Assembly (NCBI GenBank): GCA_017548545.1 | Contig: JAFYZW010000026.1 | Location: 3,440-35,439, forward strand | Source: Bacteroidales bacterium | GTDB lineage: Bacteria; Bacteroidota; Bacteroidia; Bacteroidales; UBA3663 | Direction: 5' to 3' | DNA length: 32,000 nt | Part shown: positions 10,027 through 16,011 of the stretch, piece by piece | Layout: the number at the start of each line of letters is the position of its first letter | How positions within the stretch are numbered: the stretch's first letter is position 1 | The notes under the pieces: generated by a model | Told to the model about the DNA's origin: nothing | Database searches by the model: none | Seen by the model: only the letters and a program-made list of their open reading frames with translations | Program-made: the position numbers and the translations under genes

Positions 10027-10524
10027 CTATTCCATCTCCCTTATCGGATTGACAAAGATAGTATGGAATTTCGGATCCCAACGCCAATCGCCTTGTGGAA
10101 TAATGGTGGAAATGCTGTAATGCAGATGCGATGGCTTGCCCTTTGCATTCCCCGTATCACCGACTTTTCCAATGACTGATTTTCGGGTTACAATGGCACC
10201 AACGTGAGTATCAATCTCGCTCAAATGAGCATAGTAATGAAGGCGCAGGCCGGAACTAAGCACCAAGATGCAGTTTCCGCCTGCGCCCTTGTTATGTGCT
10301 GTAGCCACCACAATTCCTCCAATTGCAGGACGAACAGGTGTGCCCTTGCGTGCAAAGATGTCGATGCCACGATGCTTGTGGTCACCCCACGGATGCCAGA
10401 ATGACTGAGGGTTGTAACTCTCCTTGCCACAGCCCTCCACAGGATTTTGTATCTTCGTTGGCAACAACATCATAACAACCATCGTTGCCAAAATGATAAT
10501 CAGTGTCCAAAATATCTTCTTCAT
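10027..10524 (-). CDS. M23-family (LytM-type) peptidoglycan metallopeptidase, N-terminal membrane anchor
   Basis: HxxxD motif (HRGIDIF) and HxH motif (SHLHYSI), plus VGDTGNA. Start taken at the ATG at 10524 (MKKIFWTLIIILATMVV). Confidence 0.85.
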   Translation of the reverse strand: MKKIFWTLIIILATMVVMMLLPTKIQNPVEGCGKESYNPQSFWHPWGDHKHRGIDIFARKGTPVRPAIGGIVVATAHNKGAGGNCILVLSSGLRLHYYAHLSEIDTHVGAIVTRKSVIGKVGDTGNAKGKPSHLHYSISTIIPQGDWRWDPKFHTIFVNPIREME

Positions 10525-10540
10525 AATGCAAATTGAAAAG

Positions 10541-10990
10541 TCATTGTTTGTAACGATATACACGATATGGGACATCATGATCGTATGGATTCATTTTCCT
10601 TTGTTTGTAGTCGCTGATCCACTGCTCACCATTATACATGGCTACATGTCCCCACCATTGTGATATCTTCTTCCAATCTTTCCATGCGGGACGTTCAAAG
10701 ACGACCACATCCCCTTTTTTCGCCTTGTAGCCTTTCTTCGGCACTTCTTCAAACTGCACCAGAGGCATGTAATATTTGTACCATTGGGCAGGCAAGATAA
10801 TTGCAGGACATCCTCCCGCTTGCAATGCTCGCATCGTGTACCATGCACACCAATGTTTGGATTTGTTAAGACCATGCTCGGTCAAATGAGATGTAGCTTT
10901 TTCAGAATCGAATTTGTAGGTCTGACTCCACACGACATAACCAGCCAAAATGATAAGTAGGCCAGCGATGATTTTCTTCCCTTTAGTCAT
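10541..10990 (-). CDS. CHAP/NlpC-P60-like cysteine peptidase or amidase, N-terminal membrane anchor
   Basis: TM helix IIAGLLIILAGYVVW. Candidate catalytic Cys in KHWCAWYTMRAL and His in WWGHVAMYNG, separated by GDVVVF. It ends 16 nt upstream of the M23 gene, so the two probably form an operon. Confidence 0.6.
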   Translation of the reverse strand: MTKGKKIIAGLLIILAGYVVWSQTYKFDSEKATSHLTEHGLNKSKHWCAWYTMRALQAGGCPAIILPAQWYKYYMPLVQFEEVPKKGYKAKKGDVVVFERPAWKDWKKISQWWGHVAMYNGEQWISDYKQRKMNPYDHDVPYRVYRYKQ

Positions 10991-11108
10991 ATTCCTATTC
11001 ACCAATTATATAATATTAATGTGATTTCAATAATATATGCTATAATGCTTCAAAAGGTAAACTATACAATGCAAAGAAAAGGACGCGAAACGAGGTATAA
11101 CCATTTTT

Positions 11109-11509
11109 GGCTAAGATTGGGTATAGTGCGACTGGAGCATGACCATTCTTGGCCAAGATTGGGTATGGTGCGACTGGAGCATGACCATTCCTGGCCAAGA
11201 TTGGTTATAGTGCGATTGGAGCATGATCTTTCCTGGCCAAGATTGGGTATGGTGCGACTGGAGAATTACCTTTCCTGGCCAAGATTGGTTATAGTGCGAT
11301 TGGAGCATGACCTTTCTTGGCCAAGATTGGTTATAGTGCGATTGGAGCATGACCTTCCCTGGCCAAGATTGGGTATGGTACGATTGGAGGATGACCTTTC
11401 CTGGCCAAGATTGGTTATAGTGCGACTGGGGCATGACCATTCTTGGCCAAGATTGGTTATAAAACGACTACGGCATGACTTTTCTTGGCCAAGAAAGGTC
11501 ATGCCGTAG
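11109..11509. repeat. Tandem array of about 9.5 copies of a 42-bp imperfect palindrome (core TCTTGGCCAAGA)
   Basis: Unit starts at 11109, 11151, 11193, 11235, 11277, 11319, 11361, 11403, 11445 and 11487, exactly 42 bp apart. Consensus GGCCAAGATTGGKTATRGTGCGAYTGGAGCATGACCWTTCYT. Three reading frames are open only because the unit lacks stop codons. Confidence 0.95.
11468..11509 (-). terminator. Perfect 42-nt palindromic hairpin, probable terminator of the rlmI-folA transcript
   Basis: CTACGGCATGAC (11468-11479) pairs with GTCATGCCGTAG (11498-11509), with inner TTTCTTGG/CCAAGAAA pairing. On the minus strand it is followed by TCGTTTTAT. It lies 74 nt downstream of the folA stop. Confidence 0.6.
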
Positions 11510-11582
11510 TTTAAGAATAGGAATTCCTTATTGGAATTGAGTTATCCACTCAATGATATTGTGTGCCTTGGTGTTGAACTGG

Positions 11583-12089
11583 TCAACTGCGTTTCCACAC
11601 CTCGAAAGTCATGGGGAAATCGTTGTTTTCGTCGGCCTCGACATCCTGGCTGCTGATACATTCAAAGCCTTCGGGGATGGGCGGGATACTGGCATCAAAA
11701 TCCTCGACAAAGGTATGGACGCGGGTCAAATAGATGCAATCGGCATCGCTCCATGCCTGATTGTATATTTGTGCTCCTCCAATCACGAAGCAGTCAACCG
11801 GGCTGTGTTCAATGGCCTCAATGAGCGAGTGATAAACTTCGATACTGGTGCCAGGCTTGAGGTTGCTCATCACTTCCTCCGAGATATGAAAGAGACCATC
11901 GCGCGTTACCACAACATTACGACGTCCAGGAAGTGGACGACCAATTGACTCGTAGGTCTTTCGACCCATGATGACAGTGTGACCTTTGGTAGTCACCTTG
12001 AAGTACTGCAGGTCGGCACGCAGATGCCAAGGCATAGTGCCCTGGTTACCGATGGCGTTGTTTTCGGATGCAGCTACAATAATGTTCAT
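11583..12089 (-). CDS. folA: Dihydrofolate reductase
   Basis: MNIIVAASENNAIGNQGTMPWHL...DLQYFKVTTKGHTVIMGRKTYESIGRPLPGRRNVVVTR is a classic DHFR signature. Confidence 0.93.
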   Translation of the reverse strand: MNIIVAASENNAIGNQGTMPWHLRADLQYFKVTTKGHTVIMGRKTYESIGRPLPGRRNVVVTRDGLFHISEEVMSNLKPGTSIEVYHSLIEAIEHSPVDCFVIGGAQIYNQAWSDADCIYLTRVHTFVEDFDASIPPIPEGFECISSQDVEADENNDFPMTFEVWKRS

Positions 12090-12098
12090 TGTTTCTTA

Positions 12099-13391
12099 CT
12101 ATTCTACATAGAGTACTAGACCCTTCAGGTATTCGCCCTCGGGATGGTAAATACTGATGGGATGGTCGGCAGGCTGATGGAGCTGATAGAGGATACGTAC
12201 ACGACGGCCTGTTTGGGCGGCTGCGCTGAACACAGCACAGCGGAAATCTTCCTTGGTCACCACCTGCGAACAGGAGAAAGTGAAGAGAATGCTGCCCGAA
12301 GGCATCTTCTCGAGCACCTTTGCGTTGAGTTTCTGGTAGCCACGTAGCGCATTATGCAAAACCTTGCGATGCTTGGCGAAGGCCGGAGGATCGAGGATGA
12401 CGAGATCGTAGGGGAAAGCCTCTCCATCTTCCGATCCCGTGTAACCAGCAGGATCCCTAAGGAAATCGAACACATCGGCCACATATGCCTGATGGCGCGA
12501 ATCATTAGGGTAGTTCAATTCCACATTGGCATTGGTGAAGCCGATTGCCTGCTTCGATACATCGACGGAATGTACAAGCTCTGCCCCACCCCGCATGGCA
12601 TAGAACGAGAAGCCACCGGTATAGCAGAACATATTGAGCACCTTACGTCCCTTGGCGAAATGCTCGACGAGGGCGCGGTTCTCGCGCTGATCAACGAAGA
12701 ATCCGGTCTTCTGCCCCTTGAGCCAATCGACGTGGAACTTCAAACCATTTTCAAGAGCCACGTCACTAATGGTCTGTTCGAGCGCACGTCCTTGCGCGGC
12801 ATCTTTGACAGGCTTGCCATCGATAATCAGGTATCCATTCACCGATTCTCCTTCGGCCTCAGCCTCCTGTCGCGCCTCGGTCTTATAACCCAATGTCGTC
12901 TCCGACTTGTAATAGACATTGCGAATCTCTGCACCCGCAACACGAATTAAATCTTCGGCCAGCGCCTGTCGTATATAGTGAATACCGGCCGTATGCGCCT
13001 GCATCACAGCCGTGTGAGCATAGACATCGATGATGAGTCCCGGGAGTCCGTCACCCTCGCCATGCACCAGACGATAAGCGTTGTTGTCGGGACGAATCAA
13101 GCCGAGCGACTGACGCAACGCGTAGGCCGACTGCAAACGACGCAGGAAGAACTCTTCGTCGAACTCATTTTCATCGAACGAGAAGATACGTACAGCGATG
13201 GAGCCAATCTGATACTGACCCAAGGCGAGGAATTCGCCCTGCGAAGAGACCACACGTACCCAATCGCCTTCCTCAGGCTGTATCTCGTTGCCGAACTCAT
13301 CCTCCATCCTGTAGATGGCACCGGAGAAAACCCACGGATGGAATCTCAGCAACGACTCCTCTTTCCTATGCTTCAATATGATAGTGATCAT
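12099..13391 (-). CDS. rlmI: Class I SAM-dependent 23S rRNA (cytosine-C5) methyltransferase, RlmI-like
   Basis: PUA-like N-terminus (LRFHPWVFSGAI). Methyltransferase core (VLNMFCYTGGFS, LVILDPPAFAK) typical of the RlmI/YccW family. Confidence 0.8.
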   Translation of the reverse strand: MITIILKHRKEESLLRFHPWVFSGAIYRMEDEFGNEIQPEEGDWVRVVSSQGEFLALGQYQIGSIAVRIFSFDENEFDEEFFLRRLQSAYALRQSLGLIRPDNNAYRLVHGEGDGLPGLIIDVYAHTAVMQAHTAGIHYIRQALAEDLIRVAGAEIRNVYYKSETTLGYKTEARQEAEAEGESVNGYLIIDGKPVKDAAQGRALEQTISDVALENGLKFHVDWLKGQKTGFFVDQRENRALVEHFAKGRKVLNMFCYTGGFSFYAMRGGAELVHSVDVSKQAIGFTNANVELNYPNDSRHQAYVADVFDFLRDPAGYTGSEDGEAFPYDLVILDPPAFAKHRKVLHNALRGYQKLNAKVLEKMPSGSILFTFSCSQVVTKEDFRCAVFSAAAQTGRRVRILYQLHQPADHPISIYHPEGEYLKGLVLYVE

Positions 13392-14790: not shown

Positions 14791-16011
14791 TTAAAGCCCC
14801 AAGATCTCACGAGCCTTGATGCGTGCTTCAGCATCGATTTCAAAATAATCTTCGAGCGAAGGACTTGCCACGAAAGGCATAGTGGCCACCGTCTTTTCGT
14901 TGACCTCGGCCATCTGCAGGAACTTGCATTGTCCGCGACGGAATGCTTCGTTGGTCACCTCGTTGGCTGCATTGAGCACACAAGTGCGGTCGCCGCCTGC
15001 TGCCAAAGCCTCGAATGCGAGACGCAGATTGGGGAATCGCTCCAAGTCGGGACGCTCGAAGGAGAGATGGGCATAATCCTCAATCTTGAGTTTGCCATTG
15101 ATTTGCGATGGCATGCGATCGGGATAGCTGAGGGCGTAGGCGATAGGCACCTTCATGTCTGGACAGCCCAATTGCGCCTTGATGGCACCGTCGCTGAACT
15201 GAACCATCGAATGAACGATGGACTGCGGATGAACAGCCACCTCAATCTGATCAGTGTTCATGCCAAAGAGCCAGCGTGCCTCGATGACCTCGAAACCTTT
15301 GTTCATCATCGATGCCGAGTCAATGGTAATCTTGGCTCCCATGTCCCAATTGGGATGCTTGAGCGCCTGTGTTGCCGTCACGTCGCGCATCTGCTCCATC
15401 GTGAAGGTGCGGAACGGGCCACCGGAAGCAGTGATAATGAGCTTGTCAATGGGATTGTCGAGATAATGAGGTTTCTCGGCGTTCTCGTTGTCGTTCTTGA
15501 TCCAAGGGAAGCAACCGCGGGCAATGCTCTCGCCCTGCAGGCACTGGAAGATGGCCGAATGCTCGGAATCGACAGGTAGGATAGGCACCTGATATTCGGC
15601 ACATAGACCTTCGATCAACTGGCCAGCTACGACAAGCGTCTCCTTATTGGCTAGCGCCAGCATCTTCTGCGCCTTGATGGCAGCAACTGTTGGGCGCAGA
15701 CCTGCAAAGCCTACCATAGCGGTGACGACAACGTCGATAGGGCCAGCAGTCACTACTTGACAAAGACTTTCGGCTCCCGTCCAAACCTTGATGGGCAAGT
15801 CGCTCAGCGCCTCACGTACCTTGTCGTAACAGGTCTCGTCGGCAATGACTACAACCTCAGGATGGAACTGGCGAGCCTGCTCAATAATCAAATCTGCCGA
15901 ACGATTGGCAGTGATGGCATATACACTGAAAAGATCGGGATGTTCGGCACAAACCTCCAAGGTCTGCCGCCCAATACTTCCCGTACTGCCGAGAATAGCT
16001 ATATTACGCAT
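14791..16011 (-). CDS. dxr: 1-deoxy-D-xylulose-5-phosphate reductoisomerase
   Basis: ILGSTGSIGRQTLEV NADPH-binding N-terminus, LANKETLV, DSEHSAIFQCL and NKGFEVIEA. Confidence 0.95.
   Translation of the reverse strand: MRNIAILGSTGSIGRQTLEVCAEHPDLFSVYAITANRSADLIIEQARQFHPEVVVIADETCYDKVREALSDLPIKVWTGAESLCQVVTAGPIDVVVTAMVGFAGLRPTVAAIKAQKMLALANKETLVVAGQLIEGLCAEYQVPILPVDSEHSAIFQCLQGESIARGCFPWIKNDNENAEKPHYLDNPIDKLIITASGGPFRTFTMEQMRDVTATQALKHPNWDMGAKITIDSASMMNKGFEVIEARWLFGMNTDQIEVAVHPQSIVHSMVQFSDGAIKAQLGCPDMKVPIAYALSYPDRMPSQINGKLKIEDYAHLSFERPDLERFPNLRLAFEALAAGGDRTCVLNAANEVTNEAFRRGQCKFLQMAEVNEKTVATMPFVASPSLEDYFEIDAEARIKAREILGL

Follow-up and report, generated by a model that had tools for sequence, protein, structure and literature searches.

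The 42-bp palindromic array located between folA and a pair of cell-wall hydrolase genes is a member of a dispersed family of intergenic, non-coding arrays in Bacteroidales, which share a common geometry and are constrained in sequence. In the window (the whole stretch of 32,000 nucleotides of Bacteroidales DNA that was analysed), positions 11090-11509 are occupied by ten 42-bp units, 420 bp in total, if the degenerate last unit and the terminal palindrome are included in the count. The reading preferred here, with a probability of about 45%, is that the array is one copy of a dispersed, BIME-like mosaic palindrome family, in which the head would terminate folA transcription and the body would serve as a phased DNA site for protein binding. 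As a part of this explanation, the family seems to have been inherited vertically in a clade of uncultured rumen and gut Bacteroidales. The features of the locus, in the order of their coordinates, are as follows.

10027..10578, minus strand: M23 peptidase gene (Pfam Peptidase_M23, E = 3.8e-20).
10541..10990, minus strand: CHAP-like gene of 149 aa, the downstream neighbour of the array (76 homologues, several with PF05257).
11028..11067, minus strand: conserved promoter-like stretch ahead of the CHAP-like gene, with GTATAGTTTACCTTTTG and, about 18 nt further downstream, TATTATTG.
11090..11467, minus strand: units 2-10, nine A-type 42-bp modules, from the period of 42 given by Tandem Repeats Finder and the unit register.
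11090-11131, minus strand: the degenerate last unit, unit 10 in the reading direction of folA.
11459..11467, minus strand: T-rich tract TCGTTTTAT, read from the sequence, directly 3' of the head hairpin on the folA strand.
11468..11509, minus strand: head unit, unit 1 in the reading direction of folA, a near-perfect 42-nt palindrome CTACGGCATGACC...GGTCATGCCGTAG.
11510..11534, minus strand: leader, made up of an orphan left half-unit (CCAATAAGGAATTCCTATTCTTAAA) immediately next to unit 1.
11535..11560, minus strand: small inverted repeat ATTGAGTGGATAACTCAAT, containing TTATCCAC, in the spacer that separates the array from folA, with a 7-bp stem in the minimum-free-energy fold.
11583..12089, minus strand: folA, dihydrofolate reductase (Pfam DHFR_1, E = 5.9e-47), the 3' end of which faces the head unit.

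The original prediction of a tandem 42-bp palindromic array between folA and the hydrolase genes was borne out by both Tandem Repeats Finder and the unit register. A single array was reported by Tandem Repeats Finder (11108-11494, period 42, 9.2 copies, 87% matches, 0 indels, score 543). The core TTGGCCAAGA occurs 18 times within the array with at most one mismatch, compared with 2.3 +/- 1.5 occurrences when the whole window is shuffled. The consensus of the A module across the family is TCGAAGCATAACCAATCTTGG|CCAAGAATGGTCATGCTGCGA, and AAAAAAAAAA was used as the pattern to scan for it. The proposed 42-bp phasing was upheld and extends to the family as a whole. A higher-order period of about 84 bp had also been suggested; it is absent in the folA array, where lags of 42, 84 and 126 give identities of 0.875, 0.871 and 0.881. 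True periods of 84 and 126 bp exist in related arrays, and are produced there by alternation of A and B modules. Logan contigs were observed to terminate inside the folA array. Of the genes said to flank the array, folA and the M23 gene were confirmed by Pfam. The CHAP member of the hydrolase pair was confirmed in part: homologues carry the CHAP domain PF05257, but the 149-aa window protein (10541-10990) itself has no Pfam match.

With the strict 22-mer pattern, 34 array loci were found in MAGs of about nine species of rumen Bacteroidales, a single genome having as many as 7, and the skeleton pattern extended the family to at least 120 metagenome contigs. Similarity of the flanks sorts these arrays into 35 locus groups. 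Ten is the commonest number of units, being found in 22 of 32 locus groups and in 74 of 105 complete metagenome arrays, and 60 of these 105 arrays measure exactly 420 bp. Unit spacing is exactly 42 bp in 1242 of 1315 cases (94%), and units of 41 and 43 nt also occur. Three interchangeable types of palindromic module, A, B and C, share one common register and have unrelated arm sequences; the collection comprises 927 distinct units of type A and 215 of type B. Module orders include AABAABACAA, ABABABABAB, and one array composed entirely of 10 B units. The A module contains a 30-bp imperfect palindrome, and A units inside one array mostly have the same orientation, with the exception of some first units. 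The 12-nt linkers are repeated and conserved.

All 36 arrays from genome contigs are intergenic (36/36), and in most locus groups the array starts between -2 and 70 bp past a stop codon. Orientation relative to the upstream gene is mixed (12 vs 7, a noisy count), three locus groups sit between divergent gene starts, and a T-tract follows the last unit in several groups. The flanking genes are heterogeneous, and no Pfam family was shared by more than 2 of the 44 neighbours scanned. The original prediction had tied the array to folA and the CHAP-M23 genes, and had derived it from serial, diverging duplications of a terminator-like palindromic element. The same element was found at about 35 other intergenic loci with unrelated neighbours, so the array is not tied to these genes; this distribution also speaks against local serial duplication of the folA terminator and against a regulator dedicated to the hydrolase operon. 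The array had no match among phages, plasmids and viral contigs. Rfam returned nothing at gathering thresholds, and a permissive search produced only eukaryotic miRNA-precursor hairpin models, far below threshold. The array had not been recognised as a described element, and no published description was found; in the literature on REP, BIME or tandem palindromes in Bacteroidales only BrickBuilt was encountered.

The arrays are also constrained in sequence: overall, orthologous arrays share 80-90% identity, and four-fold degenerate sites of flanking genes 47-74%. Orthologues of the window array are 80-86% identical to it and show no small indels, with one whole unit missing from L171; at four-fold degenerate sites of CHAP and folA, identity is 47-71%. 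Units at matching positions in the window array and in related species likewise agree at 80-86%. In other locus groups the corresponding values are 0.78-0.90 for arrays against 0.65-0.74 for four-fold sites, but the pair L032/L039 shows no excess conservation of the array over four-fold sites. Gains and losses of whole units do occur, and relatives of the window array have 9-10 units. Positional orthology of units is visible among L005, L027 and L033. Strong concerted evolution within arrays was considered and rejected, as its effect is only modest: identity is 36.9/42 within arrays against 34-36/42 between most orthologues and 31/42 for L023. Gene conversion among paralogous arrays, rather than selection, could partly account for the conservation above four-fold sites. 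Taken together, ten modules, a phase of 42.0 bp, interchangeable palindromes and conservation above silent sites make neutral repeat dynamics hard to invoke.

The level at which this constraint acts was approached through arm pairing. Among 827 distinct A units, the observed number of Watson-Crick pairs never exceeded that expected under independent variation of the arms, and mismatches are conserved at pair 7 (A.A) and pair 12 (A.C). Assignment of an RNA strand from G-U versus A-C counts was attempted and abandoned, as no bias was present except the fixed A.C at pair 12. Judged from these patterns of variation, the constraint probably acts on the DNA sequence rather than on RNA.

The head unit differs from the other units in its longer and more GC-rich stem. 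It had been described as a perfect palindrome; the 42-nt hairpin is real, but the palindrome CTACGGCATGAC...GTCATGCCGTAG at 11468-11509 is only near-perfect, with 20 of 21 positions paired and one G-U/A-C position. It is predicted to fold at -27.7 kcal/mol when read on the minus strand and at -32.8 when read on the plus strand (z about -8). None of the six orthologous arrays examined, that of the window included, departs from the stem CGGCATGACC/GGTCATGCCG, and the T-rich tract following the head unit in the orthologues L171, L005, L027, L033 and L023 reads TCGTTTYAT, or TTGTTTGAT in L023. On the folA strand, the hairpin followed by UCGUUUUAU lies 74 nt past the folA stop codon and matches the pattern of an intrinsic terminator, a GC-rich stem-loop with a U-tract. 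The earlier proposal that the terminal palindrome is placed to act as the folA terminator agrees with this strong hairpin followed by UCGUUUUAU and with the conservation of the palindrome in 6/6 orthologous arrays, and the head module is here regarded as the putative terminator of folA transcription. The head hairpin was not listed by a simple consensus terminator scan, possibly due to its long interrupted stem.

The sequences on either side of the array were also compared. The leader consensus GAATGAGGAATAACCCATCTCCAA is found at the same distance before unit 1 at many paralogous loci, and 12% of pairs of leaders from non-orthologous loci reached p<=0.01, compared with 2-4% in controls. A promoter was considered for the leader and rejected: no consistent TTTG / TAnnTTTG pair is present, and an orphan left half-unit explains it better. 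The inverted repeat in the spacer is partially conserved in orthologues. On the other side, AGTTTACCTTTTG upstream of the CHAP gene is kept in relatives both with and without the array, and a sigma-70-type scan also flagged 11061-11032. The stretch at 11028..11067 is interpreted as a putative Bacteroidetes -33/-7 promoter. Since this promoter-like stretch lies downstream of the array, the array would fall outside the 5' UTR of the CHAP gene.

Each element consists of an orphan half-unit leader followed by about ten in-phase 42-bp modules (about 420 bp), usually placed soon after a stop codon. According to the preferred reading, the head module at this locus, with its long GC-rich stem and UCGUUUUAU, would end folA transcription. 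The nine remaining modules would form a phased row of conserved dyad sites, which might be read as double-stranded DNA by a putative dimeric or oligomerising protein. In this way the array may mark or insulate the junction of the folA and CHAP-M23 units, with no specific regulation of the hydrolase genes. Because the arms of A, B and C are unrelated, either several proteins would be needed, or recognition would depend on shape rather than sequence. Palindromy is the sole feature common to the three types and so points to a hairpin or cruciform, for which an RNA or single-stranded-DNA mechanism fits equally well.

The best-surviving alternative, which is nevertheless considered unlikely, is an RNA-level element. 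The array would be co-transcribed as the 3' UTR of the upstream gene, and its stack of hairpins would stop or attenuate read-through both ways and shield the mRNA 3' end from exonucleases. Termination and protection of mRNA 3' ends are the classical RNA role of REP sequences. A location just past stop codons is also expected of an RNA 3'-end element, all three module types are palindromic, the head unit resembles an intrinsic terminator, and T-tracts end several arrays. The array region moreover folds far better than shuffled sequences, with z = -9.5 on the minus strand and z = -9.2 on the plus strand. However, this stability does not extend to the single internal units of the folA array, which on the gene-sense strand reach only -6 to -7 kcal/mol (z about 0 to -0.6) and do not surpass shuffled sequences; the plus strand gives -10 to -14 kcal/mol. 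The claim that every unit can form a hairpin is weak for this array, the internal units of which are not convincing hairpins. The absence of compensatory covariation in 827 A units also opposes an RNA role, as does the conservation rather than repair of mismatches, with G-U not favoured over A-C on either strand. The mixed orientation to the upstream gene, on its noisy count, and the three locus groups between divergent gene starts are further difficulties. Finally, an exact 42-nt phase and ten units are unnecessary for a hairpin stack.

It is somewhat less likely still that the array is the relic of a non-autonomous mobile element, of the MITE, BrickBuilt or BOX-like kind, in which a ten-unit founder spread in an ancestor and has since been passively inherited. 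Many dispersed copies (about 35 locus groups) with an orphan half-unit leader common to one end would be expected of such a relic, and the uniform size across paralogous loci would then reflect the ten units of the founder. The family is confined to one clade, and the intergenic site between folA and CHAP is prone to insertion in relatives, where a GH5 gene, an R-M system and a second repeat family were found. BrickBuilt provides a precedent in the same order (PMC4596501). Terminal inverted repeats seemed visible by eye; they were not supported by a shuffle test of the leader against the reverse-complemented tail, in which 1/24 loci reached p<0.05 and the fraction of significant pairs equalled that of the control. 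No target duplication was seen, the site in the array-less relatives L008-L011 being rearranged by an R-M insertion that leaves no comparable edges, and near-identical copies at different loci of one genome were not observed. A mobilising enzyme did not emerge from the neighbourhood either: no family occurs in more than 2/44 flanking proteins, and no transposase is among the 25 of 62 families listed. By phmmer with an IS608 TnpA seed, neither a RAYT gene nor any other Y1-transposase-like ORF was matched in 5864 ORF segments (1.13 Mb of fetched loci), a weak test with this single seed. Moreover, passive inheritance is difficult to reconcile with arrays conserved above four-fold sites, as phase and length are kept while silent sites are 47-74% identical.

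An independent non-coding RNA gene, giving a transcript of about 450 nt with ten hairpins that an RNA-binding protein might, for example, use as a sponge or scaffold, is considered very unlikely. Such a gene would suit the polarity of the element, which has its leader on one side and often a T-tract on the opposite side, and the plus strand of the array region (antisense to the neighbours here) folds at -217 kcal/mol. However, no conserved Bacteroidetes-type promoter (TTTG ... TAnnTTTG) was read by eye before the leader, the leader is accounted for as a half-unit, and both covariation in A units and a match in Rfam are lacking.

Still less probable is a locus-specific array, as originally framed, whether it regulates CHAP-M23, serves as an iteron or a centromere-like site, or is a minisatellite that expanded neutrally from the folA terminator. 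The array does directly precede the CHAP promoter, also in five related contigs (L171, L005, L023, L027 and L033), and stays beside it even where a GH5 gene separates the array from folA. It is absent, however, beside equally similar CHAP genes (L008-L011, L172, L173), and its distribution over about 35 loci with unrelated neighbours largely refutes this reading. The genes parA and parB lie 9 kb from the array, but no canonical parS was present in the window at <=2 mismatches and no plasmid was matched; an iteron or parS centromere array, inferred earlier from the geometry, was rejected on these grounds and on the scatter of the loci. Nor is the array freely variable, since 7 contigs share exactly the same translation of it and 9-10 units are present in relatives. 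A coding repeat protein, the 14-aa repeat of which would read WPRLGxVRLEHDxS (plus strand) or MLQSHYNQSWPGKV (minus strand), has a negligible probability: ORFs of 162, 109 and 78 aa do span the folA array and a public 154-aa gene call exists on the plus strand, but the best frame is open in only 7 of 28 related arrays, most of which have stops in all six frames as the original prediction of a non-coding array would lead one to expect, units of 41 and 43 nt break the frame, the orthologous region in L005 has no gene call, and the ORFs across the array have no significant Pfam match.

A bolder version of the DNA-level reading may also be proposed, although we consider it unlikely. The arrays would be functional chromosomal landmarks of one size, 420 bp, in which ten dyad sites follow one another at exactly four helical turns and seed a protein-DNA assembly of defined make-up between genes. 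The assembly might involve, for example, a topoisomerase, a nucleoid protein or a complex that insulates transcription, and the length of the array would be a 'ruler' maintained by selection. If true, this would be a novel type of chromatin or boundary element in bacteria, confined to a clade of rumen Bacteroidales. Bacteroidales dominate gut and rumen communities. Palindromic repeats of the interspersed kind have been studied thoroughly in proteobacteria and in a few Gram-positives but are hardly known in this order, and the present family is apparently undescribed. The regularity of the family points to a function at gene boundaries. In practice, the arrays break short-read assemblies and yield spurious ORF calls, such as the 154-aa 'protein' in 7 contigs, and they are also a clade-specific marker.

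Several known systems resemble these arrays to different degrees. Regular spacing, partly palindromic repeats and a leader at one end are shared with CRISPR. Unlike CRISPR, no unique spacers exist here and the 12-nt linkers are repeated; the earlier exclusion of a CRISPR array is upheld by these linkers and by a whole-unit identity of 0.875 at lag 42. Cas families gave no Pfam match in 27 of the 28 large window ORFs, a scan that covered all but the dxr ORF at 14791-16011. A type III toxin-antitoxin RNA array of the ToxI kind was rejected, as flanking genes differ from locus to locus and no Pfam family occurs in more than 2/44 neighbours. The MIRU loci of mycobacteria resemble the present arrays in their tandem units (40-100 bp), in numbering a few dozen and in lying between genes, right against the gene ends, but MIRU copy number varies among strains and the units are non-palindromic, with small ORFs overlapping the flanking genes. 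In the BOX elements of Streptococcus pneumoniae, a tandemly repeated module of about 45 bp lies between a head and a tail module. Like the present family they are modular, dispersed and intergenic, with stable predicted secondary structure; they differ in boxB repeats numbering 0 to about 8, in modules that are not palindromes of one register, in a Firmicute host and in unrelated sequences.

The BrickBuilt MITE of P. gingivalis belongs to the same order and is likewise intergenic, dispersed (19 loci) and limited in host range, with a tandem-repeat core and a distinct leader, to which BrickBuilt adds a tail (PMC4596501). Its repeat, however, is 23 nt long, non-palindromic and present in 1 to 22.8 copies, compared with a palindromic 42-bp unit in nearly always about ten copies here, and it has small terminal inverted repeats, none of which were detected in the present arrays (PMC4596501). 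BrickBuilt and the 42-bp family have no similarity in sequence.

The closest comparison is with the REP and BIME sequences of E. coli and other proteobacteria, although the host here belongs to another phylum. Units in the present arrays mostly have direct orientation, whereas REPs alternate, and nearly all of them form arrays of about ten in an exact 42-bp phase, whereas REPs occur as singles, pairs and variable clusters. The GTAG/CGTC tag of REPs is not conserved here: positions -19 to -16 read G-N-A-G, with N = T in 52 of 263 units, and the GTAG at the end of the window head unit is not general in the family. Protein binding is among the roles proposed for BIMEs: BIME-2 is bound by gyrase, and other BIMEs by IHF, in the manner supposed here for the nine body modules. 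Both families consist of extragenic imperfect palindromes of about 30 bp, arranged as mosaic clusters of several palindrome types with linkers. Both are found after gene ends and between convergent genes, and both preserve conserved mismatches inside the palindrome. Termination and mRNA stabilisation have also been proposed as roles of BIMEs (PMC3733652).

A single strong tandem array was detected in the window by Tandem Repeats Finder (11108-11494, period 42, 9.2 copies, 87% matches, no indels, score 543), confirming the 42-bp array of the original prediction. The in-register layout takes in the terminal palindrome as well as a degenerate final unit and spans 11090-11509, corresponding to ten units and exactly 420 bp. 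The core TTGGCCAAGA (at most 1 mismatch) occurs 18 times in the array, compared to 2.3 +/- 1.5 across the whole shuffled window. All of the neighbouring genes are encoded on the minus strand, as listed here.

Features around the array in the window
12099-13391, minus strand, RlmI-like methyltransferase
11583-12089, minus strand, folA
11090-11509, array, between folA and the 149-aa gene
10541-10990, minus strand, 149-aa gene, with a CHAP domain in its homologues
10027-10578, minus strand, M23 peptidase

The longest M23 ORF shares 38 bp with the CHAP-like ORF (10541-10578); M23 gene calls in relatives vary from 148 to 200 aa, leaving the true start of M23 uncertain. Just 3' of folA lies an inverted repeat, ATTGAGTGGATAACTCAAT (11535-11560), which contains the DnaA-box-like TTATCCAC and is partly conserved among orthologues. 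The genes parA (179-1111) and parB (1166-2080) are found 9 kb away from the array, and no canonical parS TGTTNCACGTGNAACA (at most 2 mismatches) was found across the 32-kb window.

The terminal unit (11468-11509), nearest folA, had been described as a perfect palindrome; it is a strong, near-perfect one, with 20 of 21 positions paired. Its predicted folding energy is -27.7 kcal/mol for the minus strand and -32.8 kcal/mol for the plus strand (z ~ -8). Read on the gene-sense strand, single internal units reach only -6 to -7 kcal/mol, which does not improve on shuffles, so the idea that every unit folds as a hairpin is not upheld. Nor was an 84-bp higher-order period observed (identity 0.875 at lag 42 vs 0.871 at lag 84).

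Besides the source contig, several sister contigs could be retrieved. A search of related genomes, as had been proposed, showed that the array is very probably one member of a dispersed family. A TCTTGGCCANNAANGGTCATGC scan of one genome per species yielded 38 loci, 34 of them full arrays, in about nine Bacteroidales MAG species from the rumen or herbivore gut, and as many as seven loci in a single genome. A looser skeleton pattern of two adjacent units matched at least 120 metagenome contigs. No match came from plasmids, phage genomes, viral contigs or Rfam. Short-read Logan contigs from other runs (L002, L003 and L004) stop inside the array, two units beyond the head hairpin, which indicates that the family fragments assemblies; arrays of above-average length or uniformity are probably under-represented.

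Relatives of the window locus were located through the CHAP-like protein. In contigs L005 and L007 (CHAP 81% identical) the same ten-unit array lies directly upstream of the CHAP promoter, while in the similarly distant L008-L011 it is absent and a restriction-modification insertion takes its place. The folA-CHAP interval is itself an insertion hotspot in relatives: in one lineage a GH5 cellulase gene stands between array and folA (L005/L007, 760-2463), and in another (L008/L009, ~200-2600) an XhoI-like endonuclease and an Eco57I-type methylase occur.

Uniform analysis of 156 arrays, divided into 35 groups by flank similarity, revealed a consistent anatomy. Ten units is the modal size for 22 of 32 groups, nine for five and eleven for two; 74 of 105 complete metagenome arrays contain 10 units, and 60 measure exactly 420 bp. 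The predicted 42-bp phase holds family-wide, with 1242 of 1315 spacings exactly 42 bp. The arrays are mosaics of three palindromic module types in one register: A (ATAACCAATCTTGG|CCAAGAATGGTCAT), B (GCACTCTGACGG|CCGACAGAGTGC) and the rarer C (GCATAA...TATGC). Observed orders include AABAABACAA, AAABAABAAA, ABABABABAB, all-A (the window locus) and all-B, the last also with ten units. Single 42-nt modules outside these types, such as TTGCGGCAAACAGATTTCGTTTTTCGATTCGCTATTCTTCCA, occur in locus group 2 (L054 2566-2608 and similar); they stay in register, so the phase is preserved even when the palindrome is lost. A second, unrelated tandem-repeat family of period 41 adjoins the arrays in several relatives (L025 942-1284; L027 1442-1520; L171 ~1700-2030; the tail of L023). 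Its units resemble GTACTACTTGCGAACACTTGATACCATCTCGCGGCAATATG, with CAATATTG-type palindromes, and it occurs at the window-locus orthologue in relatives and is absent from the window.

Every array is intergenic. For most groups, a stop codon is found -2 to 70 bp from one edge, with gene starts 100-640 bp off; three groups sit between divergent gene starts, and orientation relative to the adjacent gene is variable. The 44 flanking proteins comprise housekeeping enzymes, glycoside hydrolases and peptidases, at most two per Pfam family. This heterogeneity indicates that the array's supposed tie to folA and the hydrolase pair is incidental.

By position, the window array and its orthologues are 80-86% identical without small indels, one whole unit being missing in L171, compared to only 47-71% at four-fold degenerate sites in the neighbouring CHAP and folA genes. 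Other locus groups gave 0.78-0.90 against 0.65-0.74; in one close pair the arrays were no better conserved than these sites, and gain or loss of whole units happens occasionally. The exact translation of a 154-aa ORF spanning the array is shared by 7 contigs of 20-200 kb, showing that this array is stable within its species. These results mean that the arrays are not neutral minisatellites. Part of the conservation could stem from gene conversion between paralogous arrays rather than from selection.

The 827 distinct A units share the invariant skeleton AT..CC......GG|CC....A..GG..AT. Watson-Crick counts at the variable pairs never exceed those expected for independent arms, mismatches are conserved at pairs 7 (A.A) and 12 (A.C), and G-U versus A-C counts are free of strand bias except at pair 12. 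This pattern fits conserved sequence rather than an RNA helix kept by compensatory change. Against this, the sole feature common to A, B and C is palindromy with the same centre and length, which speaks for a structural property: hairpin, cruciform or dyad.

The head module, a GC-rich 21-bp stem followed by UCGUUUUAU, is a good candidate for the folA terminator, as originally placed, and is kept in all 6 orthologous arrays examined, the window's included. The nine other modules may be bound in double-stranded form, at the gene boundary, by a protein that dimerises or oligomerises. Duplex recognition is favoured by phasing of exactly four turns, dyad symmetry that shows no strand bias, orientation independence, sequence-level conservation and conserved array length. 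The combined statement of dispersed family and mechanism is given a probability of roughly 0.45; for the array body, the DNA-protein mechanism is a tentative proposal. The main rivals are less likely. A stack of RNA 3'-end hairpins would suit the shared palindromy and the head hairpin; against it stand the weak folding of internal units on the gene-sense strand and the lack of covariation between arms. Somewhat less likely still is a non-autonomous mobile element that had a ten-unit founder and survives as a passive relic. In its favour, the same orphan left half-unit, or leader, opens many paralogous arrays; against it, terminal inverted repeats were not confirmed on testing. A coding repeat was rejected, as had been anticipated: at best 7 of 28 arrays keep any one frame open, most arrays have stops in all six frames, and 41- and 43-nt units exist. 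The public 154-aa gene call (window 11045-11509, plus strand; L001 4581-5045) is thus almost certainly a spurious protein entry.

Among known elements, the family is most like the mosaic REP clusters (BIMEs) of enterobacteria, from which it differs in lacking the GTAG/CGTC tag as a general feature and alternating unit orientation; a weak search of the fetched loci found no RAYT gene. No description of these arrays was found in the literature searched. Within the order, the closest precedent is the P. gingivalis element BrickBuilt, which has terminal inverted repeats and whose 23-nt repeats are not palindromic and number 1 to 22.8 copies (PMC4596501). The present arrays constitute a dispersed palindromic repeat family set apart by its ten-module size, strict 42-bp phase and interchangeable modules.
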